A stretch of 62,519 nt of DNA from an uncultured Erysipelotrichaceae bacterium (GTDB lineage Bacteria > Bacillota_I > Bacilli_A > RF39 > UBA660). The stretch covers positions 1-62,519 of the forward strand of contig CADBUX010000003.1 in the NCBI GenBank assembly GCA_902797995.1, given 5' to 3'. This document shows positions 2,884 through 29,860 of the stretch, in pieces (the first letter of the stretch is position 1; each line of letters opens with the position of its first letter). The notes below the pieces were generated by a model, which was not told where the DNA came from, made no database searches, and saw only the letters and a list, made by a program, of their open reading frames with translations. The position numbers and the translations under genes were made by a program.

Positions 2884-4633
2884 AGAAGAATATCCATGGT
2901 ATAAGTTTTATGGAGATGTTCCTAAACATATAGATTATCCAGATGGCTCAATGGTTGATGCTGTTATGGAAACAGCTTTTAAGTATCCAGATAATTATGC
3001 ACTTGAGTATTACAATAATAGAATAACTTATAGACAGTTTTCAGATGAGATAATTGAGTGTGCTAAAGCATTAAAAGCTATTGGAGTTTGTGAAGGGGAC
3101 GTAGTTAGTATTTGTATGCCTAATACAATATCTGCACTTATTATGTTTTATGCGGTTAATATGGTAGGTGCTATTTCTAATATGATTCATCCACTTTCTA
3201 GTGAAAAAGAAATAGAAATGTTTCTTAATAAGACTAAGTCTAAAGTCATACTTACTATTGATATCAATTATAAAAAAGTAATTAATATAATAAATAATAC
3301 TTATGTAACAAAGGTAATTATATCTTCTGCAGGAGATGATTTAAAAGGTTTTAAAATGTTTATGTATAGTATTTTTAATACTGATGTTACTAAGGCAGTT
3401 AAAAAAATAAAACAAGTATTTTTAAAGGCTTTTAAGAATAGGGAAGTTATTTCTTATAAAAAGTTTATTAAAAAAGGACATTTGTATTATGAAGATTATA
3501 GCGTTATTAGAAAAGCAAGTGACGATGCAGTAATTCTTTATAGTGGTGGTACCAGTGGTACTCCAAAAGGAATAATGCTTACTAATCTTAATTTTAATGC
3601 TTTAGCATATGGGGCTCATTATATGTGTGATCCTTCGAAAGAAGGCGATTCAATACTTTCTATAATGCCAATATTTCATGGTTTTGGTCTTGGGGTTTGT
3701 ATTCATACATGTCTTCATATTGGTATGAAATGTATACTTGTTCCTACTTTTAAAGCAAAGAAGCTAATTAATTTGATTAGAAAAACCAGACCTAACTTTT
3801 TTGTAGGTGTTCCAACTTTATTTGAGGCTTTGTACAATAGTCCTAATTTAAAGGAAGGAGATTTTTCTTCAATAAACTGTATAGTTTCTGGTGGGGATAT
3901 ATTAGATGAAGAAAATTATATTAGATATAATGAAATGTTTGAAAAATATGGCTCTAAAGCAAAAGTGAGAGTAGGATATGGTCTTACTGAAGCATGTGCT
4001 GCAACGTGTTTATCTCCTACAAATATGCATAGAGATGGCTCTATTGGTATACCTTTTCCAGATAATATATATAAGATTGTTAAAATAGGTACTACTAAAG
4101 AAGTTAAACTTATGGAAGATGGGGAAATATGTATATGTGGTCCTTCAGTTATGAAAGGTTATTTGAATGAAGAAGAAGAAACTTTAAATTCTTTGAAAAA
4201 ACATAGTGATGGGAAGATTTGGCTTCATACTGGTGATATAGGATGTATGGATAAAGACGGATTTTTATATTTTAAATCTCGTTTAAAGAGGATTATTATC
4301 TCTTCAGGTTATAATATATATCCATCATATATTGAATCAGTTATTAATAAACATGAATATGTTTCTAATTCTACAGTAGTTGGAGTTCCTGATAAATATC
4401 GTGGTCAAATTGCTAAAGCTTTTATAGTTTTAAAAAAGGAAGTTAAACTTACTGATGAAGTTGAAAAAGAAATAAAAGAGTACTGTTCTAAACATATTGC
4501 AAAATATTCTATGCCTCGGATTTTTGAATTTAGAAAAGAACTTCCTAAAACTTTAGTAGGTAAGGTTGCTTATACTGTATTAGAAAAGGAAGAAGAATTG
4601 AGAGAAAAGGTTATTGAAAGTAAAGACAAATAA
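2861..4633 (+). CDS. AMP-dependent synthetase/ligase (long-chain acyl-CoA synthetase-like)
   Basis: AMP-binding motif YSGGTSGTPKGIMLT, GYGLTE, TGD...DGFLYFKSRLKRII, and the C-terminal lysine region KTLVGKV. Confidence 0.9.
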   Translation: MKKLKLNKEEYPWYKFYGDVPKHIDYPDGSMVDAVMETAFKYPDNYALEYYNNRITYRQFSDEIIECAKALKAIGVCEGDVVSICMPNTISALIMFYAVNMVGAISNMIHPLSSEKEIEMFLNKTKSKVILTIDINYKKVINIINNTYVTKVIISSAGDDLKGFKMFMYSIFNTDVTKAVKKIKQVFLKAFKNREVISYKKFIKKGHLYYEDYSVIRKASDDAVILYSGGTSGTPKGIMLTNLNFNALAYGAHYMCDPSKEGDSILSIMPIFHGFGLGVCIHTCLHIGMKCILVPTFKAKKLINLIRKTRPNFFVGVPTLFEALYNSPNLKEGDFSSINCIVSGGDILDEENYIRYNEMFEKYGSKAKVRVGYGLTEACAATCLSPTNMHRDGSIGIPFPDNIYKIVKIGTTKEVKLMEDGEICICGPSVMKGYLNEEEETLNSLKKHSDGKIWLHTGDIGCMDKDGFLYFKSRLKRIIISSGYNIYPSYIESVINKHEYVSNSTVVGVPDKYRGQIAKAFIVLKKEVKLTDEVEKEIKEYCSKHIAKYSMPRIFEFRKELPKTLVGKVAYTVLEKEEELREKVIESKDK

Positions 4634-4675
4634 AAATATAGTTTTTTAAAAAGTCTTTGCTTTTTATATGTTTTA

Positions 4676-4684
4676 TGATATAAT
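4676..4684 (+). promoter_or_regulatory. extended -10 element (TGaTATAAT) upstream of rimP-nusA
   Basis: tgatataat at 4676-4684. There is a weak -35-like tttgct about 17 nt upstream. Confidence 0.4.
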
Positions 4685-4696
4685 TTAGATACAACG

Positions 4697-4727
4697 AAGT
4701 GGGAAATTCCCACTTTTGTTTCGTTTT
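4697..4727 (+). terminator. intrinsic-terminator-like hairpin. It is either the terminator of the ligase gene or a leader attenuator of the rimP-nusA operon.
   Basis: Stem aagtggga (4697-4704) / tcccactt (4708-4715), loop aat, then ttgtttcgtttt. It lies downstream of the TGnTATAAT element and 13 nt upstream of the rimP start. Confidence 0.5.
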
Positions 4728-4739
4728 GAAGGAGGAGTT

Positions 4740-4976
4740 ATGGAAGAAAAAGTAAAAAGAGTTATATCTCTACCTTTAAAAGAACTTAATATGGTAGTAG
4801 ATAGTGTAAGTTTTGAAAAAGGTAATTTAAACATAGTATTAGATAGTGATGAAGTTATTAATTTAGATAAAATAGTAGAAGCTAGTCACTTAATTAATGA
4901 TATTTTAGATAAAGAAGATTTTATTAAAGAATCTTATACACTTGATATATCAAGTAAAGAAAAAGGAGGTAATTAA
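4740..4976 (+). CDS. rimP: ribosome maturation factor RimP, N-terminal domain only (78 aa)
   Basis: Position immediately 5' of nusA. GAAGGAGG SD sits 5-12 nt upstream of ATG 4740. The end YTLDISSKEKG resembles the RimP Y.LEVSSPG block. About half the usual length. Confidence 0.65.
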   Translation: MEEKVKRVISLPLKELNMVVDSVSFEKGNLNIVLDSDEVINLDKIVEASHLINDILDKEDFIKESYTLDISSKEKGGN

Positions 4977-4977
4977 A

Positions 4978-6048
4978 ATGAATGGACAAGAGTTTTTAAA
5001 TGCTGTTGATCTTTTAGAGAAAGAAAAACATATTGATCGTGATATTATTTTTGAAGCTATGGAACTTGCACTACTTTCTGCTTACAAGAAGAATTTTAAT
5101 TCTTTAACAAATGCTAAGGTTAGTATAAATAGAGATACTGGTGATATAAAAATATATTCTTATAAAACAGTAGTGGAAGAAGTAGAAAATGATGATACTG
5201 AAATATCTTTAGAGGATGCTAAAAAGATTAATAAAACATTAGAACTTGGTGATACAATAGATGAAGAAGTAACTCCAGATAACTTTGGTAGAGTTGCTGC
5301 AAGTACTGCAAAACAAGTTGTTGTTCAAAAGATAAGAGAAGCTGAAAGAAATAGTTTAATAGAAGAATTTCAAGATAAAGAAGGAGAACTTGTTTCTGGT
5401 GTTGTTGCTCTTGAAGATGAAAATAATTATTATATAGATCTTGGTAGAACAAATGGGATTTTACCTAAGAGTGAACTTATTGGTGATGAAAAAATTGAAA
5501 TGGGTTCTACTATAAAGGTATATGTAACAAAAGTAAATTCTAATTCAAAAGGAACAATTATTCTTTTATCAAGAAGTCATTATAACTTTGTAAAAAGATT
5601 ATTTGAACTTGAAATACCAGAACTGGCAGATGGCTCTGTGTATATTTATGGTGTTGCAAGGGATCCTGGTTCAAGAAGTAAAGTAGCTGTTTATTCTGAA
5701 TATGCTAATATTGATCCAATTGGATGTTGTATTGGTGAAAGAGGTTCTAGAATATCTAATATAATAAAAGAACTTTCTGGTGAAAAATTAGATATTATTA
5801 AGTATTCAGAAGATAAAGAAGAATTTATTAAGAATGCTTTAAATCCTGCGAAAAATGTATCTGTATTTATACTTGATCCTAAAAAAAGTGAAGCACTTGC
5901 TATTGCAGATGGTGACGATTTTTCTTTAGCTCTTGGTAAGAAAGGTCAAAATGTTCGCTTAGCTTCACGTCTTACTAAATATAAAATTGATGTAAAAAAT
6001 AGTGAACAAGTAAAAGAAATGGGTATTAATATAAGAGTAGGTGAATAG
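4978..6048 (+). CDS. nusA: transcription termination/antitermination factor NusA
   Basis: N-terminal block FLNAVDLLEKEKHIDRDIIFEAMELALLSAYKK, an S1 domain, and KH domains (GERGSRISNI, GKKGQNVRLAS). GGAGG SD before ATG 4978. Confidence 0.95.
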   Translation: MNGQEFLNAVDLLEKEKHIDRDIIFEAMELALLSAYKKNFNSLTNAKVSINRDTGDIKIYSYKTVVEEVENDDTEISLEDAKKINKTLELGDTIDEEVTPDNFGRVAASTAKQVVVQKIREAERNSLIEEFQDKEGELVSGVVALEDENNYYIDLGRTNGILPKSELIGDEKIEMGSTIKVYVTKVNSNSKGTIILLSRSHYNFVKRLFELEIPELADGSVYIYGVARDPGSRSKVAVYSEYANIDPIGCCIGERGSRISNIIKELSGEKLDIIKYSEDKEEFIKNALNPAKNVSVFILDPKKSEALAIADGDDFSLALGKKGQNVRLASRLTKYKIDVKNSEQVKEMGINIRVGE

Positions 6049-19990: not shown

Positions 19991-20019
19991 AAATTTCCTT
20001 TTAGGGAAATTTTTATTTT
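19991..20019 (+). terminator. intrinsic terminator of the suf operon
   Basis: Stem aaatttcc (19991-19998) / ggaaattt (20005-20012) followed by tttatttt. Confidence 0.65.
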
Positions 20020-20107
20020 GCTATTAAAACTCTTTTTTAAACATTGAAAATGGCGATTTGCATCTAAAAATAAAACCTTTTATAGTGATAAAAAGGAGGT
20101 GATTTTG

Positions 20108-20446
20108 GTGCTTAATCAAATAGTTTTAGTGGGGCGTTTAGTAAGAGATCCTGAAGTTAAAAAAGCTAAAAATGGTAATTCATATTCTCATATTACTTTA
20201 GCAGTTCCTAGAAGTTATAAAAACGTCGATGGTGAGTATGAAACTGATTTTCTTGATTGTACTTTATGGCAACTAATGGCTACTAATACTAAAGAATATT
20301 GCAAAAAAGGTGATATTGTTGGTGTTAAAGGCAGAGTCGAGTCTAAGGTATATGAAAAAGATGATGAAAAGAAATATGTAACTGAAATTATTGCAGAAAA
20401 AGTTACTTTTCTTTCATCAAATAAAACAGAAGCAGAAGAAGTATGA
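20108..20446 (+). CDS. ssb: single-stranded DNA-binding protein, OB-fold only (SsbB-like, no acidic C-terminal tip)
   Basis: LNQIVLVGRLVRDPE..., TDFLDCTLW, VGVKGRV. Start taken at GTG 20108, 8 nt after GGAGG. Ends ...NKTEAEEV without a DDDxPF tail. Confidence 0.85.
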   Translation: MLNQIVLVGRLVRDPEVKKAKNGNSYSHITLAVPRSYKNVDGEYETDFLDCTLWQLMATNTKEYCKKGDIVGVKGRVESKVYEKDDEKKYVTEIIAEKVTFLSSNKTEAEEV

Positions 20447-20460
20447 TCTTCTGTTTTTTT
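20433..20460 (+). terminator. intrinsic terminator of ssb
   Basis: Stem cagaaga (20433-20439) / tcttctg (20447-20453) followed by ttttttt. The stem overlaps the ssb stop codon. Confidence 0.7.
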
Positions 20461-20490
20461 TACCTATAAATGTACAATAAAAATAATCTA

Positions 20491-20518
20491 TTTACAAATT
20501 TTGTGTTTTATGTATAAT
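20491..20518 (+). promoter_or_regulatory. sigma-A-like promoter upstream of the small precursor ORF
   Basis: TTTACA (20491-20496), 16-nt spacer, TATAAT (20513-20518). It lies between the ssb terminator and the precursor SD. Confidence 0.5.
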
Positions 20519-20538
20519 ATAGTTAAGGAGGTATTATT

Positions 20539-20691
20539 ATGATAAAATCTGATAACGTTAAAGAAATGAATGTTAAAGATAAGACGAATTCAATACAAAA
20601 CGAAGAAAAAGAATTATCTGAATCTAAGCAAAAACAACTAAAGAAATTAGAGTATTTATTGCAATGTGCTTCTGCTGAGTGTGGATGGTAA
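20539..20691 (+). CDS. candidate RiPP precursor peptide (50 aa): MIKSDNVKEMNVKDKTNSIQNEEKELSESKQKQLKKLEYLLQCASAECGW
   Basis: Hand translation; the ORF is too short for the supplied track. AAGGAGG (20525-20531) sits 7 nt before the ATG. The Lys/Glu-rich leader-like region has no Cys. The only Cys (x2) and Trp residues are in the last 8 residues. It lies directly upstream of the radical SAM operon. Confidence 0.6.
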   Translation: MIKSDNVKEMNVKDKTNSIQNEEKELSESKQKQLKKLEYLLQCASAECGW

Positions 20692-20698
20692 TGAGTTT

Positions 20699-20725
20699 GG
20701 CCTATATATAATATAGGCCGTTTTT
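20699..20725 (+). terminator. hairpin (partial terminator/attenuator) between the precursor ORF and the radical SAM genes
   Basis: Perfect 9-bp stem ggcctatat (20699-20707) / atataggcc (20711-20719), loop ata, followed by gttttta. Confidence 0.55.
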
Positions 20726-20742
20726 ATATTAAGGAGTAATTT

Positions 20743-21771
20743 ATGGAAACAAATGTATTAGTAGATATGAGATCATTATCTTTTATGATTACTGATAAAT
20801 GTAATTTAAAATGTAGTTTTTGTAGCAAAAATGCTGACTTTGCTAATTCTAGATTTATGGATCCTTCTTTTATTGATAAAACTATAAAAGATGCTCTGAA
20901 ATGGGCAGATATTAAGATTATTAACTTAACTGGAGGAGAAGCATTATTGCATCCTAAATTAGATGATATTTTATCAATTATTGATTCATATGGACTTCAA
21001 GCAAGGATTAATACTAATGGAACTCTGTTTAATGATAAGATGATTAATATGCTTAACAAACATAACGCTAAGATGTTTACAATAAGTTTAGATAGCTCAG
21101 ATGCAAAAAAACACGATACAATAAGAGGAATTGATGGAGCTTTTAATAAAACTGTTGAAGGTATAAAAAGGGGAGTTAAGGAGGGCTATAAAATATTTGT
21201 TAAGGCTACTGTTTCTGATGAAAATGTAGATGATATTTATGATTTGATGAAATTTGTAGATGATTTGGGTATATATGGTTTTAGTTTTGGGAGAACAATT
21301 CCTGTTGGTAGAGGAGAAACATATAATTATGCCACAAAAGATTTCTTGAAAAAGTACTTTGATATGGGTAGAAAAACAAGTGAGTATGCACTAACAAGTA
21401 AACTGGAGTTTTTAATTGATGATCCTTTGCGATTTAAATTCGATTGTAGATCTAAAAAGTTACTTGAGCAAAATGATATAAGTGAACTATGGGGTGGTTG
21501 TAGTGCCGGATGTAATTTTCTATATGTAAATATGGATCTTGATGTGTTATCATGTCCTGTTCTTTTAGAACCATGTGGTAATTTGAAAAATAATACTTTA
21601 GAAGAAATATGGAAAAACTCTAACCAATTAATGGAATTTAGGACTCGCATTCACTTAAAAGGTAAATGTGGAAAATGTCAATATAAGAATATATGTGGAG
21701 GTTGCAGGGCATATGCGCTTGCAATTACAAATGATTCACTTGGAGAGGATGCTTTTTGCAAAAGAATATAA
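20743..21771 (+). CDS. radical SAM enzyme with a C-terminal SPASM-type auxiliary Fe-S domain
   Basis: CNLKCSFC (CX3CX2C, codons from 20800), GGEALLHP SAM-binding block. The C-terminal Cys cluster is GGCSAGC...SCP...PCG...GKCGKCQYKNICGGC...FC. Confidence 0.9.
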   Translation: METNVLVDMRSLSFMITDKCNLKCSFCSKNADFANSRFMDPSFIDKTIKDALKWADIKIINLTGGEALLHPKLDDILSIIDSYGLQARINTNGTLFNDKMINMLNKHNAKMFTISLDSSDAKKHDTIRGIDGAFNKTVEGIKRGVKEGYKIFVKATVSDENVDDIYDLMKFVDDLGIYGFSFGRTIPVGRGETYNYATKDFLKKYFDMGRKTSEYALTSKLEFLIDDPLRFKFDCRSKKLLEQNDISELWGGCSAGCNFLYVNMDLDVLSCPVLLEPCGNLKNNTLEEIWKNSNQLMEFRTRIHLKGKCGKCQYKNICGGCRAYALAITNDSLGEDAFCKRI

Positions 21772-24700
21772 TGAAAGTATTGTATATTCATCCAGATACT
21801 AGTGAATTGCGTGAGTCCCAAATCACTATTCCTATTGGAATTGTTTCATTGAGTAAGTTAATTAAAAAAACGGATTTAAATATTGAATATAAGGGAGTCA
21901 ATATACCGATTGAAAAAAAATTAGATCCTTTGTTTTCAATTGGAAAGTACTTGAACAAGGAAATGCCAGATGTTGTTTTAATAGATTTGCATTGGATGAT
22001 TTATTCATATACATCAATTGAGCTAACTAAAATAGTTAAAGACATTAATTCAAACTGCATTACAATTCTTGGTGGTATAACTGCAACAATTTATGCTGAT
22101 GAAATATTAAAAAATTTTAAAACTGTTGATTATATTACTAGGGGTTTTACCGAGGAATGTTTGCCTTGTTTATTAAAGGCAATAATAAGTGAATCAGAAG
22201 TTGATAATATACCAAATTTATCATTTAGAAGGAATAACAAAGTAATTCATAATGAAATTAAGATGATTGATTCTAATGCTTATTATAATTATGATGATTA
22301 TGATTTCTTATTGCATTATGAACAAATGCTAGAAGAACAATCTTCTCACATGGCTGGTAATATTAAAAAGAAGTTAGCCTGGATTCCTACCGGAAGAGGT
22401 TGTCAATATAACTGTTCTTACTGTGGTGGAAATAATAAGATGTTTAAAGAAAAGTTTTGTGTTAACAAAATGATACCTTATAATCCAAATGGTATAGCTA
22501 GTTGTATTGAAAAACTTTATAAAAAATATTCTATAGATATGTTTGGGATTACTCATGATTTTGGTATATTTTCAGAAGAATACTATAATGACATATTTGA
22601 TAATTTATCTAAATTAAGTTTTAAACCTGCGATATATAACTATTTGTTTCAGTTGCCATCAAATGATTATTTTAAAAAATACATGGATATAATTAATCAA
22701 AAAGATAGTATTATTGGATTATCGGTTATTTGTGGTAATGAAAAAGATAGAATAAGAAATGGTAAAGTATTCACTAATAAAGAATTATTTAATTTTTTGG
22801 AATTTTTGACAAACTATGATACAAAAGTTGAACTTTATTTTATTGTTAATCCATATATTGGCGATCAAAATTATCGTGATACTTTAAAATTGATTGAGAA
22901 CATTTTGAAAAAGTACAAATCACGTATGAATTTGAGTGTTTCTGCTAGTTATGAGGTAATACAACCATATTCAAAAAAACAAGAAAATAATAAGACAGTA
23001 TTTACAGGTTTTATGGATTATTATTATAGATATTCAAATAAGTTTTTAGATGATGTACGAAATGGAGAAAATATTGAATATTTAATTGGGGATAAAGATT
23101 ATGATGATCAAGTATATGATAAAATTGTGCAAATAAAAGAATTGGTTAACAAATATGAAAATAGTGTTGATATTTTATATTTATATCCACCTTCAGGTAG
23201 ACAAAAAGAATTTGAAAAAGCTTTAGGCCTTGCCTATATTGAAGCGTATTTGAAACAATATGGATATAAGTCAGTGCAGTTCATACCTAATAATTTAAAT
23301 TATGAAGAAATAATTAAGTCAATTAAAGAAATCAATCCAAAAACAATAGGTATAAGTACATATGATATGAATTATTACTATGCAAAATTACTTTCTAATA
23401 GATTGAAGAAAGAATTAAATGTTCCAATTATAATTGGAGGTCCTACTGGTACTTTTTCGTTTAATTTAGTTTTTAAAGAATGTCCAAGTGTTGATTATAT
23501 TTTGCGTGGTTATGGGGAAGAGTCTACAAAAAAACTCTTAGATTATTTAATAAAAGGAAGAGGTAATTTAGAAAATATACCTGGACTTGTTTATAGGAAT
23601 AACAATGAACTCAAAGAAAACAAATTATATGAGTTGCCACAAGACATTGATTTTTTTCCATCTCCATATTTATCTGATATTGGTTTTCTTCCAGAAAGAA
23701 AAATTGTTTTGACTTCTCGTGGATGTTTCCATAACTGTGTGTATTGTAATTGTGCTGCAATGTGTAATAAGAAAGTATATTTTCACTCTGTTAATAGAGT
23801 AATATCAGAATTAAAGTATATTTCTGATAATGAACCAGGATCATATGTATTAATTGGTGATGATGCTTTTACGTTAAATATAGAAAGAGCTAAGCAAATA
23901 TGCAAGCGAATAATAGATGAAAAAATAAATCTTAAACTGTTTTGTGAAACTAGAGTAGATAGAGTAGACTATGAATTGCTTAATTTAATGAAACAAGCAG
24001 GTGTTATTAAAATAGATTTTGGATTGGAAAGTAGTAATCCTAAAATATTACGAAACATTAAAAAAGTTTTCTATAATCCAAATGATGAGAATTATACAAG
24101 TGAGAGACAGTTTTTAAGAAATTTAAAGGATGTTGTTTCATATTGCAAAAAGTTGGGAATGGATCCGATGGTAAATATTATTAGTGGTTTGCCTGGAGAA
24201 ACTATCGATGACGCTAAAGAAACACTAGATTTTATAAAAAAGTTAGATATTAATTCATATTCGCATAATTATTTGAAATTATATTCAGGCACAAGTTTAT
24301 ATAATGAACATAGAAAGTATAAATACAAATTATGTCATAATGTATTTTCTTTACCATTAATAATCAAGTATCCTTTTGATATAAAAAAAATAACTCCTTT
24401 AAATAATTCAGTTAGTAGAACAGATATTGTCAGAATGAAAAAGGAATTTATAAAACATTGGATGGCTAAAGATTTTTGGACTTGTGATAATATTGAAAAT
24501 CTTGCTCCCCAAGATCTTGATATAAATGAAGAATTATATTTTTATGTTAAAAACAAACAAGAAAAAGAAAAAGTGTTAGGCTTTATTATCAAAAAGGAAA
24601 TTCCATCAAACAATATTGTGTTTATTGAAGATAAAAATGGTGAATTGATATGCTCTAATTATCTTGATCAAGAAAATTATATAAAAATAATAAAGATAAA

Positions 24701-25064
24701 GAATAATGCTTTTGATGTTCCTCAAAACTATTATACTTTGTTACTTGTAGAAAAAATGAATGATACTATAATGAATAGATTTAAAGAATTAAAAGTAAAT
24801 CCTTTTATTAATAGATTTGTATTAATTGAAGGTATTGATAAAGATAAATCTATTAATAATGTAATATATGATTATTGCAATACTCATAATTCTGATAAGA
24901 AGTTGTTATTAAAGTTTTCAAAATATGTCAACTATGAGTTAGATAATCTTGATATTTCTGTTTTTCAGGATATAATATATAATGATATTTTTACTGATGA
25001 AGAAATTGCGATAATTGAAAAGTTTTTGAAGTATTATTTGTTAGGAGTTGATGATGATGAATAA
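21756..25064 (+). CDS. fusion of two B12-binding-type (class B) radical SAM modules plus a roughly 250-aa C-terminal region of unknown function. The start may be TTG 21756 or ATG 21771.
   Basis: There are two separate modules. Each has a Rossmann-like N-terminal part (ITILGGITATIY...ITRGFTEE and TIGISTYD...IIIGGPTGTF...ILRGYGEE). Each part is followed by a CX3CX2C motif: GRGCQYNCSYCGG at 22401-22424 and SRGCFHNCVYC at 23724-23747. ATG 21771 overlaps the upstream stop (TAATG). Confidence 0.8.
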   Translation: MQKNIMKVLYIHPDTSELRESQITIPIGIVSLSKLIKKTDLNIEYKGVNIPIEKKLDPLFSIGKYLNKEMPDVVLIDLHWMIYSYTSIELTKIVKDINSNCITILGGITATIYADEILKNFKTVDYITRGFTEECLPCLLKAIISESEVDNIPNLSFRRNNKVIHNEIKMIDSNAYYNYDDYDFLLHYEQMLEEQSSHMAGNIKKKLAWIPTGRGCQYNCSYCGGNNKMFKEKFCVNKMIPYNPNGIASCIEKLYKKYSIDMFGITHDFGIFSEEYYNDIFDNLSKLSFKPAIYNYLFQLPSNDYFKKYMDIINQKDSIIGLSVICGNEKDRIRNGKVFTNKELFNFLEFLTNYDTKVELYFIVNPYIGDQNYRDTLKLIENILKKYKSRMNLSVSASYEVIQPYSKKQENNKTVFTGFMDYYYRYSNKFLDDVRNGENIEYLIGDKDYDDQVYDKIVQIKELVNKYENSVDILYLYPPSGRQKEFEKALGLAYIEAYLKQYGYKSVQFIPNNLNYEEIIKSIKEINPKTIGISTYDMNYYYAKLLSNRLKKELNVPIIIGGPTGTFSFNLVFKECPSVDYILRGYGEESTKKLLDYLIKGRGNLENIPGLVYRNNNELKENKLYELPQDIDFFPSPYLSDIGFLPERKIVLTSRGCFHNCVYCNCAAMCNKKVYFHSVNRVISELKYISDNEPGSYVLIGDDAFTLNIERAKQICKRIIDEKINLKLFCETRVDRVDYELLNLMKQAGVIKIDFGLESSNPKILRNIKKVFYNPNDENYTSERQFLRNLKDVVSYCKKLGMDPMVNIISGLPGETIDDAKETLDFIKKLDINSYSHNYLKLYSGTSLYNEHRKYKYKLCHNVFSLPLIIKYPFDIKKITPLNNSVSRTDIVRMKKEFIKHWMAKDFWTCDNIENLAPQDLDINEELYFYVKNKQEKEKVLGFIIKKEIPSNNIVFIEDKNGELICSNYLDQENYIKIIKIKNNAFDVPQNYYTLLLVEKMNDTIMNRFKELKVNPFINRFVLIEGIDKDKSINNVIYDYCNTHNSDKKLLLKFSKYVNYELDNLDISVFQDIIYNDIFTDEEIAIIEKFLKYYLLGVDDDE

Positions 25065-26061
25065 ACAAATATTGATTATTGAAATAACATCATATTGTAA
25101 TAGTAGATGTGAAGATTGCTTAAGAGCTGGTTTAAATGATTCTGATTATATGCTTTCATTTAAGGACATTAAAACTGCTATAAAAGAAATAAAAAAGTTT
25201 TCCAATAATTATACTGATTTCGAATTAAAGATTTCTGGGGGAGAGCCTACAATATGGTTAGATAAAACTGAAAAAAAAGATATTACTGATATTTTGTTAG
25301 AATGTGAAAATAATAATCTAAATTATGCTTTAGTTACAAATGGAAAAGTATTTTCAAATAAAGAGCAGTGTAAAGATTTTTTTGATAAAATAAAGTATAA
25401 AGGTATTCACCATTTGAAACTATTTATTACTATTGATAAGTATCATGGAAATTATACAAGTGATGATTCTAATATAATACTTGATAATGTTTTAGAACTT
25501 AATGAATTGGAAAGTTTGGAGTGTTATGTTCAATCTACAGTAACGAAAAGAAATCAAGATAATTTATCACTTGATTTTATTGAAAAGTATACAAAAAAGG
25601 GAATAAAATTTATGTTAAATCCTTTACTTCCTTGGGGAAGAGGAAAGAACCTTATAGATGTGGTCCCATATGTGAATTTAAATAATAACGATAAATCAAC
25701 TTTAGGAGATTATGAAAATTATTATTATGTTCTTGGTAAAGTCAACAATATTTGGGATACTTATGATGAATTTTTGAATATGAATAATTTAGAGACGTTA
25801 AAACGCCTTAATTGTTGTGGTAAAACCATTACTCTTATGGGAAACAAGTATTATTATTCAATGCCTTGTTCTGGCAAAGAGGAATTTTGTTTTGCGACTA
25901 TAGGTAATTTGGACTATAAAAAGTATTTAGTTTTTAAATCAAATAATAAAACGATAAAAAAAATGGCAAATAACAAAATTGCCAATGAGGATTTAATTGA
26001 TAAATGTCCAATTGGATATGGAATTTGTGGGCTTTGTATGGAGAACGATTATGAATTATAA
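25048..26061 (+). CDS. radical SAM enzyme with a Cys-rich C-terminal (SPASM/twitch-like) region
   Basis: CNSRCEDC (codons 25096-25119), ISGGEPTIW. C-terminal Cys residues: NCCGK...PCSGKEEFC...DKCPIGYGICGLC. Overlaps the upstream gene by about 14 nt. Confidence 0.8.
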   Translation: MMMMNKQILIIEITSYCNSRCEDCLRAGLNDSDYMLSFKDIKTAIKEIKKFSNNYTDFELKISGGEPTIWLDKTEKKDITDILLECENNNLNYALVTNGKVFSNKEQCKDFFDKIKYKGIHHLKLFITIDKYHGNYTSDDSNIILDNVLELNELESLECYVQSTVTKRNQDNLSLDFIEKYTKKGIKFMLNPLLPWGRGKNLIDVVPYVNLNNNDKSTLGDYENYYYVLGKVNNIWDTYDEFLNMNNLETLKRLNCCGKTITLMGNKYYYSMPCSGKEEFCFATIGNLDYKKYLVFKSNNKTIKKMANNKIANEDLIDKCPIGYGICGLCMENDYEL

Positions 26062-27139
26062 GCAAAAAAAATTAGCGAGTTTTATTGTGGATTATAGCTT
26101 AAATATTAAGCCTCAAGAAAAAGTTTTTATTAATTATGTCGGTTCAAATAAAGAATTTTTAGAGACGCTTAAATATACAATAGAGGAAAAAAATGCTATT
26201 CCAATTGTTTTTGATATGACTCCATATGAGGAGATTGAATTAATAAAATCGCTTAATGAAGAAGATATTGACCTTTTAATTGATAAAAGCATTGAGCTTA
26301 TAAGTAAATGTGATTCATTTATTTCTTTACTTGAAGATTCTGATTTTATACTTGATAATAAATATCAATATCAAAGTGATTTGTATTATAAAAAATATAA
26401 AAAAGTTATTAGAGACTATCGATTAAAAAAATGTAAATGGATTGGTTTAAGATTACCTAGTGTTCAATTAGCAAGAAAATTTAATATGTCTTATGAAGAA
26501 TTTTGCTCTTTTTATTATGATGTTTGTGGAATTGATTACAAAAGATTAAAGGATGATTATCTATGGCTTGAGGAGTTGATGTCAAATACTAATCATATAG
26601 AGATTAGTAGCGTTGATACTAATATTTCGTTTGATAAAGCAGGAATCTCTGCTCATATATTATCAGGTGAAAAAAATTTACCTGATGGAGAAATATATAC
26701 AGCACCAATTAAAGACACGGTAAATGGTACCATCAGATTTAACGCTGATTCAGTACAAAATGGTTTTAAATTTAAGGACATAAGTTTAAAATTTGTAGAT
26801 GGTAAGATTGAAGAGTTTAATTCTAATAATAATGAATTGTTTAATAATATAATCAATTCTGATGGTGGTAGTAAATATGTTGGAGAATTTGCGATAGGCT
26901 TAAATGATAAAATTAGTGTTCCACATGGCGTTATATTGTATGATGAAAAGATTTTAGGTAGCATTCATTTCGCTTTAGGACAAGCATATGATGATGCATA
27001 TAATGGAAATGATTCATGTTTACATTGGGATTTGGTTCAGGTTCAAAAACCAGAATATGGCGGTGGAAAAGTTATTTTTGATGACGAAATTATTATGCAG
27101 GATGGTATAATTAAAAAAAATAGAGGGAGGAAAAAATGA
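26051..27139 (+). CDS. aminopeptidase, M29 (AmpS/PepS thermophilic metalloprotease) family-like
   Basis: N-terminus KKLASFIVDYSLNIKPQEKVFI, PDGEIYTAP, SKYVGEFAIGLN, SIHFALGQAY and HWDLV resemble M29 conserved blocks. ATG 26051 overlaps the upstream stop. Confidence 0.75.
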   Translation: MNYKQKKLASFIVDYSLNIKPQEKVFINYVGSNKEFLETLKYTIEEKNAIPIVFDMTPYEEIELIKSLNEEDIDLLIDKSIELISKCDSFISLLEDSDFILDNKYQYQSDLYYKKYKKVIRDYRLKKCKWIGLRLPSVQLARKFNMSYEEFCSFYYDVCGIDYKRLKDDYLWLEELMSNTNHIEISSVDTNISFDKAGISAHILSGEKNLPDGEIYTAPIKDTVNGTIRFNADSVQNGFKFKDISLKFVDGKIEEFNSNNNELFNNIINSDGGSKYVGEFAIGLNDKISVPHGVILYDEKILGSIHFALGQAYDDAYNGNDSCLHWDLVQVQKPEYGGGKVIFDDEIIMQDGIIKKNRGRKK

Positions 27140-27609
27140 ATTTTGATAAAATAAAAGTGGATTGTATGACACAAGAATATGCAAAGCAAATTACAAAATG
27201 GAGATACAGAGGAAGGTATTCTTCATATAATTTGCCTTGTTATGAAGAGTGTGTTCAAAAAAAATATGGAATAACTAGAGAAGATACAAAAGATAATTAT
27301 CTTGTATATCTTTTAGATGATGAAGTGGTGTTCTATTTTAACGGTAAGCCAATGGATAATAATAGAATATATATTGGTGTTGGATTAAAGCCAAAGTATT
27401 GTGGCAAAGGTTATGGAAGCCATTTTTTAAAAGATAGTATGAGAATAATGAAGGAGAAATATCCAAATTCTGTATTCTTTCTTGAAGTTAGAAGTTGGAA
27501 CAAAAGAGCAATAAAGTCTTATAAAAAAATAGGCTTTAAAATTACTAATATTGTTATGTCGAAAGATAGATTAGGAAACGATACTGAATTCGTCGAAATG
27601 GAATTATAA
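27136..27609 (+). CDS. GNAT family N-acetyltransferase
   Basis: Acetyl-CoA-binding block GLKPKYCGKGYGSHFL and the following NKRAIKSYKKIGF. ATGA overlap with the aminopeptidase stop. Confidence 0.85.
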   Translation: MNFDKIKVDCMTQEYAKQITKWRYRGRYSSYNLPCYEECVQKKYGITREDTKDNYLVYLLDDEVVFYFNGKPMDNNRIYIGVGLKPKYCGKGYGSHFLKDSMRIMKEKYPNSVFFLEVRSWNKRAIKSYKKIGFKITNIVMSKDRLGNDTEFVEMEL

Positions 27610-27627
27610 GAAAGAGGTTAATGTGAT

Positions 27628-27656
27628 TTGACATTTTCTTATAATTTATCTATAAT
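27628..27656 (+). promoter_or_regulatory. consensus sigma-A promoter for helD
   Basis: TTGACA (27628-27633), exactly 17-nt spacer, TATAAT (27651-27656). AAGGAG SD before ATG 27686. Confidence 0.65.
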
Positions 27657-27685
27657 AATGCCCAAAAAAGGAGTGCTGAAAAAAC

Positions 27686-29860
27686 ATGGACTATATCTAT
27701 GATGAAGAGAATAAATATTTAGATAAAGTGAATAAGGCTTTAAAAGAAGAACTTGATGAAACTAATCAAGCTCTTAAGGCAGAAGCTGAAAAGATAATAA
27801 GCGTAGATGAAGCAAAAAGAGGAGCTCAATTGCTTAAAGATAGTTTAATGAAAATGTATGCTGAAAGAGTATATAATTTGACAAAAGTTGCTAGTTCTCC
27901 TTATTTTGGCAGGATGGATTTTACGCGTGCAGGTGAAAATGAGACTCAGAAAATATATATAGGAAGAACATCTTTGACAAATGATAACGAAGTATTAATT
28001 GTTGATTGGAGAAGTCCTATTTCCAGTATGTATTATAATAGTAATAAGGGTTATTCTCTATATGAAGCTCCCGAAGGAATTATAAAAGGGTTTGTAGAGT
28101 TAAAGAGACAGATTATTATTGAAAATTATAAAATTAAAAGTATTTTAGACACAGATATAGTAACTAATGATGAAATATTACAAGAGTATTTAAATGTACA
28201 TGCTGATGATAAAATGAAGAATATTATTGCTTCTATTCAAGATGAACAAAACAAAATTATTAGAAAACCTTTGGATAAAAATATAATAGTTCAAGGTGTT
28301 GCTGGTAGTGGCAAAACATCTGTTGCTTTACATAGAATTGCTTATTTGTTATATAACGCTAAAGAAACTGCTAAAAGTGATACTTTTCTTTTGTTAGGAC
28401 CTAACAATTACTTTTTAGATTATATTTCATCTGTTTTGCCCGATCTTGAAACTGAACCTATTTCACAAAAAAGGTATATTGATTTTACATCTGATTATAT
28501 TGAACAAAAAATTTCATTATCAAATAATACTGAGAAATTTAAAAAACAAAAAGAGTTAGACACATATAATAAAGTAAGGCTATTTAAAAATTCATTAGAA
28601 TATAAGGATGCAATTGAAGCATTTATGAATGACTATTTTAATGGTAGTTTTATTGATAAGGGAATTATCTTTGATGGTGTAGAAGTATTTGATAGAGATT
28701 TCATAATTTCTGCATTAACTTCTGGTGCTTTTTCTAAATTGAATTATGATCGAGCAAAAGAGATAACATTGCGAAGTTTTATAGATAGACAAAATCGTAT
28801 TTATAATTATTTAAAAAATAAATATCGCACTATTTATACTTCTTCAGATGCTAGTGTAGAGGAAAAAGAAGCCGCTAAAAGAAAAACTTTAGAAATATAT
28901 GATTTGATATATAAAAATGGCGAAAAGATAATAAAGGATTATTATAAGAAACTTGATGCTAAAATTACTGATATATATAAGAAGTTTCTTATCTCATCTG
29001 ATAATTATATTAAATGTTTAAATAGCGAAGAGATGCAAATGTTTAAGAGGGTTAGTATTAATAATAGTGGTAGATTAAAATTATCTGGAGAGGATTTGCC
29101 TGCTTTAAATTATATGAAATATCTTTTATCTGGGAAAAAAACAAAATATAGACAAATTGCAATTGATGAAGCGCAAGATTATGGTTTGTTCCATTATTAT
29201 GCTTTACTAAAAGCAAATCCTGATGCTAAATTCTCAATATATGGTGACTTAGCTCAAACAATATATCAATATACCAATATTACAAATTGGGAAAAAGTAG
29301 TTGATCAAATCTTTGATGGTGATTGTGAACTTTTAAATTTAAACAAAAGTTATCGTACCACTAGAGAGATAACTGATAATGCAAATGCTATTTTGAATCA
29401 TTTAAAACTAGAAAAAGCAAATTCGGTTGAAAGGCACGGAGAAACTGTTGAGTATAACAATGCTAAGTACTCTGAAGCAGAATTTCGCGATGTGGTTAAC
29501 GATTGGATTAATAGTGGATATAAAAGTGTTGCTATTATATGTAAAACAGAAAAGGAAGCTTTAAATCTATATAAAAATTTACTTAAAAGTAATATTTCCA
29601 TTTCATATCTAGATGATAAAACTTCAAAATATGAAAGTGGTGTGTATGTAACAACAAGTATTGCAGCAAAAGGTTTAGAATTTGATGCTGTAATTATAAA
29701 TGATGCTTCATGTACTGTTTATAATTCATCTAATAATATGGATATGCATTTATTATATGTTGCATTAACGAGGGCACTACACGAATTAAAAGTTCTTTAT
29801 AGTAATGAGATTACTGAACCTTTAAAAGAAAATGCACAGTCTAGAAATAGACAAAGATAG
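27686..29860 (+). CDS. helD: UvrD-like helicase of the HelD type (helicase IV / RNA polymerase recycling ATPase)
   Basis: N-terminal coiled coil followed by SPYFGRMDF, Walker A GVAGSGKTSVALHRIAYLLY, IDEAQD, and C-terminal YVALTRALHEL. Confidence 0.85.
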   Translation: MDYIYDEENKYLDKVNKALKEELDETNQALKAEAEKIISVDEAKRGAQLLKDSLMKMYAERVYNLTKVASSPYFGRMDFTRAGENETQKIYIGRTSLTNDNEVLIVDWRSPISSMYYNSNKGYSLYEAPEGIIKGFVELKRQIIIENYKIKSILDTDIVTNDEILQEYLNVHADDKMKNIIASIQDEQNKIIRKPLDKNIIVQGVAGSGKTSVALHRIAYLLYNAKETAKSDTFLLLGPNNYFLDYISSVLPDLETEPISQKRYIDFTSDYIEQKISLSNNTEKFKKQKELDTYNKVRLFKNSLEYKDAIEAFMNDYFNGSFIDKGIIFDGVEVFDRDFIISALTSGAFSKLNYDRAKEITLRSFIDRQNRIYNYLKNKYRTIYTSSDASVEEKEAAKRKTLEIYDLIYKNGEKIIKDYYKKLDAKITDIYKKFLISSDNYIKCLNSEEMQMFKRVSINNSGRLKLSGEDLPALNYMKYLLSGKKTKYRQIAIDEAQDYGLFHYYALLKANPDAKFSIYGDLAQTIYQYTNITNWEKVVDQIFDGDCELLNLNKSYRTTREITDNANAILNHLKLEKANSVERHGETVEYNNAKYSEAEFRDVVNDWINSGYKSVAIICKTEKEALNLYKNLLKSNISISYLDDKTSKYESGVYVTTSIAAKGLEFDAVIINDASCTVYNSSNNMDMHLLYVALTRALHELKVLYSNEITEPLKENAQSRNRQR

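Follow-up and report, generated by a model that had tools for sequence, protein, structure and literature searches.

A short open reading frame (ORF) at positions 20539–20691 of a 62,519-nucleotide stretch of DNA from an uncultured Erysipelotrichaceae bacterium (GenBank contig CADBUX010000003.1; the whole stretch is called the window below) was analysed by sequence comparison. We assign this ORF, with a probability of roughly 0.88, as the gene for the precursor (substrate) peptide of a pathway for a peptide synthesized by ribosomes and modified after translation (RiPP), which would be encoded by the five genes that follow it. The assignment is based on the ribosome-binding site and plausible promoter of the ORF itself, on the occurrence of the same enzymes in unrelated contexts, on an invariant C-terminal tail and on a box that is kept in the leader. 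What is generally expected of a RiPP precursor gene is found here, both in the window (a short ORF with translation signals and adjoining co-directional modifying enzymes) and among its relatives (co-occurrence with the same enzymes elsewhere, a kept core and recognition sequence and an otherwise variable leader).

Probable precursor gene

The ORF had been proposed in a first-pass annotation of the window made from the letters alone. The frame opened by the ATG at 20539 reads exactly as claimed there, with 50 codons followed by the stop codon TAA at 20689–20691, and its translation is MIKSDNVKEMNVKDKTNSIQNEEKELSESKQKQLKKLEYLLQCASAECGW (50 aa). The AAGGAGG described upstream was located at 20525–20531 with a spacer of 7 nt. 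The contrast drawn between a leader and a core is also present in the translation: residues 1–42 contain no Cys or Trp, and Cys43, Cys48 (C-x4-C) and the sole Trp, Trp50, all lie in the last eight residues. The first of the radical S-adenosylmethionine (SAM) genes said to lie directly 3' starts at 20743, 52 nt past the stop codon and on the same strand.

The warning that automated gene calling may miss the ORF stood in part. It did not hold for the exact 50-residue product, which is called on 23 metagenome contigs with the same synteny (sample label STEW19, taken to be rumen). It did hold for a homologue, the ORF at 242–343 of locus L022 (about 28–33 aa), which the genes called for the NCBI metagenome-assembled genome (MAG) GCA_029004695.1 do not include.

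The 296-nt spacer between ssb (20099–20446) and the first radical SAM gene (20743) is almost wholly accounted for by the ssb terminator, a promoter-like site, a Shine–Dalgarno sequence, the ORF, a 10-bp hairpin with a T-run and the Shine–Dalgarno sequence of the next gene. Coordinates are given in Table 1.

Table 1. Features of the precursor locus and of the genes following it in the window.
Feature	Position	Strand	Remarks
Promoter-like site	20491–20518	+	TTTACA-16 nt-TATAAT; 11/12 match; would put the transcript start near 20525
Shine–Dalgarno sequence	20525–20531	+	AAGGAGG, 7 nt 5' of the ATG
Precursor-peptide gene (assigned)	20539–20691	+	50 codons and stop; ATG 20539, TAA 20689–20691
Variable N-terminal leader, residues 1–33	20539–20637	+	Almost no identity across homologues
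Conserved leader box, residues 34–42	20638–20664	+	LKKLEYLLQ; seen in alignment A3, the profile-search sequences and the codon table
Core, residues 43–50	20665–20688	+	CASAECGW; family motif C-x-[ST]-x-E-C-G-W at the C-terminus
Hairpin followed by a T-rich run	20698–20730	+	10 base pairs; terminator-like; between the precursor and first enzyme genes
Radical SAM/SPASM enzyme	20743–21771	+	342 aa; Pfam Radical_SAM 80.7 bits and SPASM 27 bits, both above cut-offs
Fusion of two B12-binding radical SAM enzymes	21771–25064	+	1097–1102 aa; Pfam B12-binding (two stretches) and Radical_SAM
Third radical SAM enzyme	25054–26061	+	335 aa; CxxxCxxC and four conserved C-terminal Cys
M29-family metallo-aminopeptidase	26051–27139	+	362 aa; Pfam Peptidase_M29, E 7.7e-36
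GNAT acetyltransferase	27136–27609	+	157 aa; Pfam Acetyltransf_1

Conservation of the core

Seven other distinct loci with the same enzyme set (L007, L022, L024, L027, L030, L183 and L185) were recovered through the third radical SAM enzyme and through the radical SAM/SPASM enzyme. A short ORF lies 5' of the radical SAM/SPASM gene in every homologous locus that reaches far enough upstream, and directly so in six of the seven. All seven ORFs end in C-x-S-x-E-C-G-W followed by a stop codon. The precursors are MKKVLKKATKKDSKKMKPVQTSKIENDSVLKELEYLLQCASAECGW in L007, (M)EKEFDTAEVSLKEIEYLLQCASVECGW in L022, MESDKKIVEEEKELKEIEYLLRCASCECGW in L024, MKQEEEKKQEMEELKEIEYLLRCASCECGW in L183, MSEIWKENEDVVNEQATEETVREIEYLLRCASCECGW in L185, ...EDDLKEIQELLSCVSMECGW in L030 and MKKTEKKQKKAESISAEAKKAALEKEIETLRDSFDCGSAECGW in L027. 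A lack of conservation in syntenic loci had been named beforehand as a ground for abandoning the assignment; frame and tail were kept in all seven. The flanks differ where they are known, being suf and ssb in the window, LysR and a methyltransferase in L007, a nonribosomal peptide synthetase and a histidine kinase in L024, and a GNAT and IS21 in L030.

In a codon table of the eight loci, Cys(-8), Ser(-6), Glu(-4), Cys(-3), Gly(-2) and Trp(-1), numbered from the C-terminus, are invariant. Amino-acid changes in the core are confined to positions -7 (A/G/V/N) and -5 (A/V/C/M/I). Synonymous codons are used at five of the six invariant residues (TGT/TGC, TCT/TCA/AGT, GAA/GAG and GGA/GGT), which points to selection on the protein sequence. 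The core boundary proposed in the first-pass annotation agrees with this comparison, in which six of the last eight residues are fixed while the leader diverges almost completely.

A profile of the homologues searched against 5.8 billion proteins gave 25 clusters, 23 of which terminate in C-x-[ST]-x-E-C-G-W. The exceptions are P0018, which is archaeal, and P0035. The latter, a metagenome peptide on a 942-nt contig, ends in ...CASCECPIV in place of ...CECGW; a frameshift or sequencing error is likely here, and a genuine variant tail could also account for it.

The tail was also sought as a DNA pattern (TGYGCNWSNGCNGARTGYGGNTGGTRR) in 185,579 species genomes. This gave 14 matches, of which 13 were rejected as out-of-context frames (11 in genomes of 62–69% G+C and two at 47% and 56%). 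The only genuine match, L016, is on the same contig as L007.

No match of the peptide to a curated family was found in Pfam or NCBIfam at E <= 0.01 (PHROGs lay outside the search). The source databases name its homologues 'hypothetical protein', with one wrong name: the 46-residue L007 precursor (P0020) carries the JGI label 'cysteine sulfinate desulfinase/cysteine desulfurase-like protein'.

These comparisons bear on the simplest alternative, namely a frame left open by chance in an AT-rich spacer, with no product. Short ORFs are common: an ATG-initiated ORF of at least 50 codons was obtained in 63 of 5000 shuffles (1.3%) of the 296-nt intergenic region, and promoter-like hexamers are not enriched in this DNA. 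The length of the ORF alone is thus suggestive and not decisive, and conservation is the stronger argument. Frame, tail and position are kept across loci whose enzymes are only 34–68% identical, and the fixed residues change synonymously. A strong Shine–Dalgarno sequence at optimal spacing precedes the ORF in the window, L007/L184, L024 and L183, with a weaker one in L185. The codon table and the sequences from the profile search effectively refute a chance frame.

Leader and leader box

Among homologues the whole leader is between 21 and 42 residues long, and the changes in length stay in frame. In the close variants P0002 and P0003 (92% and 86% identity) every substitution lies in the leader, 5' of the conserved box. 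This box has the family consensus [LV][KR]E[ILV]EYLL[QRT]. The first-pass annotation had flagged an amphipathic stretch, LKKLEYLL, which turned out to be the sole part of the leader conserved across homologues, as would be expected of a recognition sequence. The box is therefore a candidate enzyme-recognition sequence that would dock the peptide onto the enzymes.

Signals flanking the ORF

The promoter-like site is the second best on the + strand within 20000–28000. Such sites are not enriched in this AT-rich DNA (56 found against 63 expected from shuffles), so the site is weak evidence on its own. Before the homologous ORFs, AGGAGG is found in L183, L007/L184 and L024, and a weaker GGGG in L185.

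The hairpin 3' of the precursor stop codon has a predicted energy of -13.5 kcal/mol (z = -3.0). A stable hairpin occupies the same place in seven of the eight loci, with unrelated sequences and z between -2.4 and -5.5; the exception is L030, which is disrupted by an insertion sequence. A hairpin after the structural gene is a common arrangement in RiPP clusters. In the window it is probably a partial terminator or an mRNA stabiliser that holds the precursor mRNA above the enzyme mRNA. The possibility of an RNA element in place of a peptide gene found no support in Rfam, which has no family at the ORF region and identifies only two tRNAs, elsewhere in the window.

The hairpin raises the question of a regulatory leader peptide (attenuator), in which a ribosome at the Cys and Trp codons would control the hairpin at 20698–20720 and read-through into the enzyme genes, the peptide itself being no substrate. 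The arrangement has the right outline, since a short ORF with a good ribosome-binding site stops 6 nt before a terminator-like hairpin 5' of a biosynthetic operon, and a ribosome terminating at 20689–20691 would be expected to cover the 5' arm. We nevertheless consider attenuation very improbable. Ser, Glu and Gly vary no more than Cys and Trp do and show synonymous codon changes, no alternative antiterminator pairing was seen in the RNA folds, and the archaeal homologue described below repeats the motif twice, internally. The L030 ORF is intact although an IS21 element separates it from the operon. Under attenuation the operon would also comprise four radical SAM domains, a peptidase and a GNAT but no gene for their substrate. 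Conservation at the level of amino acids in practice excludes both this explanation and a chance frame.

The element in L030, a human-gut contig, is of the IS21 type (IstA transposase and IstB ATPase; 2970–5299, minus strand) and lies between the intact precursor and the radical SAM/SPASM gene.

Related and excluded loci

An archaeal groundwater MAG (JACPVU010000026) contains a related locus, L105, with a precursor at 5248–5391 (peptide P0018). It encodes MSRRQIDPKLACNTIECGWITYKSKIPVDPYLACNTIECGWVTVYKK, in which the motif CNTIECGW occurs twice and internally. Beside the precursor, the locus encodes a radical SAM/SPASM enzyme of 38% identity, a pair each of class I methyltransferases and GNATs, and a Zn protease of the DUF2268 family. 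A B12-binding radical SAM enzyme, a third radical SAM enzyme and an M29 peptidase are all missing from it. L105 resembles a minimal form of the system, with a multi-core precursor, from a second domain of life. By this content, the motif travels across domains of life in the company of a radical SAM/SPASM enzyme and of methylating, proteolytic and acetyltransferase functions.

Locus L031 contains a radical SAM/SPASM enzyme of 44% identity and the N-half B12 enzyme, with IS21-like genes upstream. No recognisable precursor was found in its upstream region; the locus may be disrupted, or the peptide may be located elsewhere. L028 and L029, where the third radical SAM enzyme has its most distant homologue (P0017, 28% identity), were left out of the family on account of an unrelated methyltransferase-rich context and the absence of an ECGW peptide.

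Predicted modifying enzymes

The five downstream genes overlap or abut on the same strand, with starts at 21771, 25054, 26051 and 27136 for the last four as called on the metagenome contigs. CxxxCxxC is kept in all four radical SAM domains. None of the operon enzymes attains the curated cut-off of any NCBIfam equivalog.

In the radical SAM/SPASM enzyme the CxxxCxxC motif is at residues 20–27, and the Cys motifs are invariant in alignment A1. Its equivalog scores lie below the cut-offs for AhbD (183 against 500), WgkB (131 against 650), StsB (100 against 625) and AlbA (82 against 850). The nearest sequences in the PDB are the thioether-forming maturases SkfB and 5v1q (which we take to be CteB), together with PqqE; the aligned regions start at residue 111 of the SkfB chain and 134 of the 5v1q chain, and at residues 12 and 17 of the query. 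The enzyme is the predicted cross-linking maturase and the only maturase common to the window operon and archaeal L105.

Relatives of about 30% identity occur on environmental metagenome contigs (L032–L038, L040 and L041; for example L036 5753–5893) beside a different, conserved Cys-rich peptide, ...CTICSDCCLCETGG, with the pattern ...GPTC[ST]IC[SC][DE]CC[LRM]CE[TI]GG[VHA]. This appears to be a neighbouring, widespread precursor family.

Each half of the B12 fusion has its own B12-binding domain followed by a CxxxCxxC radical SAM core, the arrangement of class B methyltransferases. In NCBIfam the N-half is TIGR04190-like and the C-half BchE/ApyD-like, and the nearest PDB entries are CysS, TokK and TsrM. 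In L007 and L022 each half has a gene of its own, and in L030 the two are rearranged. From this domain order and these relatives, both are putative C-methyltransferases. A C-terminal extension of about 250 aa is conserved and has no known fold: its profile matched nothing in the PDB by sequence, and a single-sequence AlphaFold model reached a predicted local distance difference test (pLDDT) score of 36, too low to locate a RiPP recognition element (RRE). In L024 only, a DUF4430 protein and a small membrane protein are encoded just 5' of the precursor (4381–5251). DUF4430 is presumably related to cobalamin-binding domains, and the protein might be a source of B12 for the B12-binding radical SAM enzymes.

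The third radical SAM enzyme is rare, with 14 homologues in 5.8 billion proteins and 19 representatives at E <= 1e-30 among 1.84 billion, which makes it a good marker for the family. An AF2 model was obtained with a pLDDT of 84.5. The best Foldseek match of the model was EpeE (E 3.6e-12, TM about 0.6), followed by anSME. The model points to abstraction of a C-alpha or C-beta hydrogen.

The M29 aminopeptidase, found in six of the loci, matches AmpS and aminopeptidase T in the PDB and would be expected to trim the leader. The GNAT has RimI as its best NCBIfam match (43.9 bits, below the cut-off of 86.4) and is present in every locus long enough to display one, archaeal L105 included. Its family suggests that it N-acetylates the trimmed product.

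Comparison with known systems

Judged from its genes, the system would work like a radical-SAM-modified RiPP pathway and most resembles the ranthipeptides (freyrasin, PapA/PapB) and the related SCIFF/CteB system in its C-X3-E motif and SPASM maturase. It shares with them a short Cys-containing precursor gene directly 5' of the gene for a radical SAM/SPASM enzyme, in which a CxxxCxxC radical SAM core is combined with a SPASM domain. PapB forms thioethers in Cys-X3-Asp/Glu motifs (PMC9413430), the motif type to which the Cys-X3-Glu of this family belongs; an acceptor of the Cys-Xn-Asp/Glu kind is thus present in every member, C-x3-E being invariant. PapB also joins Cys to a C-terminal carboxylate residue (PMC12373016), a parallel to the C-G-W-COOH end of the peptide in the window. 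Freyrasin differs in having six C-X3-E motifs, whereas one is present here. To our knowledge, freyrasin and SCIFF clusters contain none of the other enzymes encoded in the window operon (the paired B12-binding radical SAM domains, the third radical SAM enzyme, the M29 peptidase and the GNAT).

Several observations weigh against the assignment or the chemistry attached to it. The PapB model (NF047865) scores 84.5 bits against a cut-off of 340 and no curated maturase model is reached, so that the chemistry is extrapolated from a distant relative. SkfB, CteB and PapB-type maturases bind leaders through an N-terminal RRE; the radical SAM/SPASM enzyme has none and starts directly at the radical SAM core, and no RRE or PqqD-family match was found by Pfam in any protein of the cluster. 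The internal position of the motif in the archaeal homologue means that the shared enzyme cannot require a free Trp carboxylate. Finally, an exporter, an immunity gene or a double-glycine leader is linked in no locus, which is unusual for a secreted bacteriocin-type RiPP. With scores below the cut-offs and no RRE, membership of the PapB, SCIFF, mycofactocin and pyrroloquinoline quinone (PQQ) families fails.

The lack of an exporter is shared with mycofactocin (MftA/B/C/E) and PQQ (PqqA/D/E), as are reactive residues near the precursor C-terminus and the pairing of a radical SAM/SPASM enzyme with a peptidase. The same gene and processing could yield an intracellular, peptide-derived small molecule, such as a cofactor or a redox or metal-binding metabolite. 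The E-C-G-W end could be excised and used in the cell in the manner of PQQ or mycofactocin, or as a cross-linked, methylated Cys-Trp/Cys-Glu unit like cysteine tryptophylquinone. Such a role would account for the lack of an exporter and of an immunity gene, and for a motif that hardly varies between domains of life. In none of the eight loci was a transporter, an immunity gene or a secretion-type leader found. The operon stands amid the housekeeping genes suf, ssb and helD with native base composition, and a pyruvate:ferredoxin-oxidoreductase-like ORF, identified by eye, is among its neighbours. The very short core is nearly invariant from Bacilli to an archaeon, as in cofactor precursors. The combination of a C-terminal core, a radical SAM/SPASM enzyme and a peptidase is likewise the logic of MftA/MftC/MftE, and QhpD-type radical SAM/SPASM enzymes make Cys-Glu/Asp thioethers next to a Cys-Trp quinone.

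We regard an intracellular product as unlikely all the same. With 25 peptide clusters among 5.8 billion proteins, the family is patchy and very rare, much rarer than mycofactocin and PQQ, and its distribution is better suited to an accessory natural product. No linked oxidoreductase is a candidate for dependence on such a cofactor. The radical SAM/SPASM enzyme falls far under the cut-offs for MftC (75.8 against 265) and PqqE (81 against 381), no chaperone of the MftB/PqqD type with an RRE is present, and the core motif and accessory enzymes differ. The varying core positions -7 and -5 would be unnecessary decoration in the precursor of a small molecule, and N-acetylation with aminopeptidase trimming is a typical finish for a peptide. 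The precursor of a modified peptide remains the preferred assignment.

The accessory enzymes of the RiPP pathway were compared in the same way. The two halves of the B12 fusion resemble class B methyltransferases (CysS, TokK, TsrM, PoyC and ApyD) at scores below the curated cut-offs (139.6 bits against 281.85 for TIGR03975, the RiPP C-methyltransferase subfamily, and 147 against 750 for ApyD). They differ in being fused head to tail, apart from the split genes of L007 and L022, and in the C-terminal extension. The third radical SAM enzyme resembles EpeE/YydG of the epipeptides in its predicted fold, its size (about 320–340 aa), its C-terminal auxiliary-cluster region and the position of its gene beside a short peptide gene; the identity is only 15–17%, with no match by sequence search. 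Its next-best structural match, anSME, is a Cys/Ser oxidase, which makes oxidation of the invariant Ser or of a Cys equally possible.

Trimming of a leader followed by capping of the new N-terminus, as predicted here, has counterparts among known RiPPs. Microviridins are N-acetylated by a GNAT encoded in the cluster. Aminopeptidase trimming is described for class III lanthipeptides with AplP and for bottromycin with BotP; the known examples belong to the M1, M17 and M61 families, and a 2023 review of RiPP leader proteases contains no occurrence of the M29 family (PMC10885120). No description of the peptide or of the system was found in the literature searched (the supplement of the radical SAM RiPP compendium PMC10288494 was outside its scope).

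Proposed pathway and product

In the proposed pathway, the radical SAM/SPASM enzyme would form a PapB-like thioether between Cys43 and Glu47 (C-X3-E), and this enzyme or the third radical SAM enzyme may add a second link from Cys48 to the C-terminal Trp50. Both proposals are drawn from the thioether-forming nearest relatives, the Cys-rich peptides beside the relatives of about 30% identity and the PapB-type motif. The specific Cys43–Glu47 linkage is tentative, being argued by analogy, and the other chemical steps are held with lower confidence. The two B12-binding radical SAM domains would C-methylate unactivated carbons, and the EpeE-like enzyme would take a C-alpha or C-beta hydrogen for epimerisation or oxidation. 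The M29 aminopeptidase would then chew the leader back to the modified core, and the RimI-like GNAT would cap the new N-terminus, to leave a peptide of about eight residues that is N-acetylated, cross-linked and methylated.

Flanking genes and base composition

A signature of a horizontally acquired island was looked for and not found: over the cluster the GC content stays level at about 26%, so that the composition is native and shows no sign of recent acquisition.

The ssb gene upstream (20099–20446) encodes a short SSB (112–115 aa) that scores 105.8 bits against the NF005242 cut-off of 189 and ends in ...NKTEAEEV, with no acidic C-terminal tail of the usual kind. It may be an SsbB-like paralogue. 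The best matches of SufB are 64–69% identical and belong to MAGs of uncultured gut and rumen Bacilli, which makes the host an uncultured representative of these bacteria.

A HelD-type RNA-polymerase recycling helicase is encoded directly 3' of the cluster in three lineages (window 27686–29860, L022 7332–9539 and L024 12834–15074), and no HelD gene is found 3' of the cluster in L007 or L185. The copy in the window is preceded by its own perfect promoter-like site at 27628–27656. The HelD copies are 34–41% identical, and thus less conserved than the cluster enzymes (55–61%). The upstream flanks of the window and L024 differ, and the L022 contig begins at the peptide gene. The adjacency could be a relic of old synteny or could have a functional basis, for instance self-resistance through a HelR-like protection of RNA polymerase.

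Implications

The family is real, rare and enzymatically unusual, and its general logic is familiar. It represents a compact uncharacterised pathway in which an eight-residue core is combined with four radical SAM active sites (of which the two in the fusion depend on cobalamin), a peptidase and an acetyltransferase; M29 is a peptidase family not previously tied to such pathways. The conserved residues allow guesses at new chemistry, namely a Cys-Glu thioether, a link from Cys to the C-terminal Trp, C-methylation and epimerisation. Genes of this kind, of 28–50 codons, are missed or misnamed in public annotation, and C-x-[ST]-x-E-C-G-W followed by a stop codon provides a handle for genome mining. 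If the product were intracellular, uncultured anaerobic gut Bacilli and an archaeon would have a new cofactor or metabolite that depends on four radical SAM domains for its synthesis and on an M29 peptidase for its release. The hosts are uncultured rumen and gut Bacilli, and the product could act in the microbiome as an antimicrobial, a signal or a cofactor, beyond the reach of culture-based discovery.

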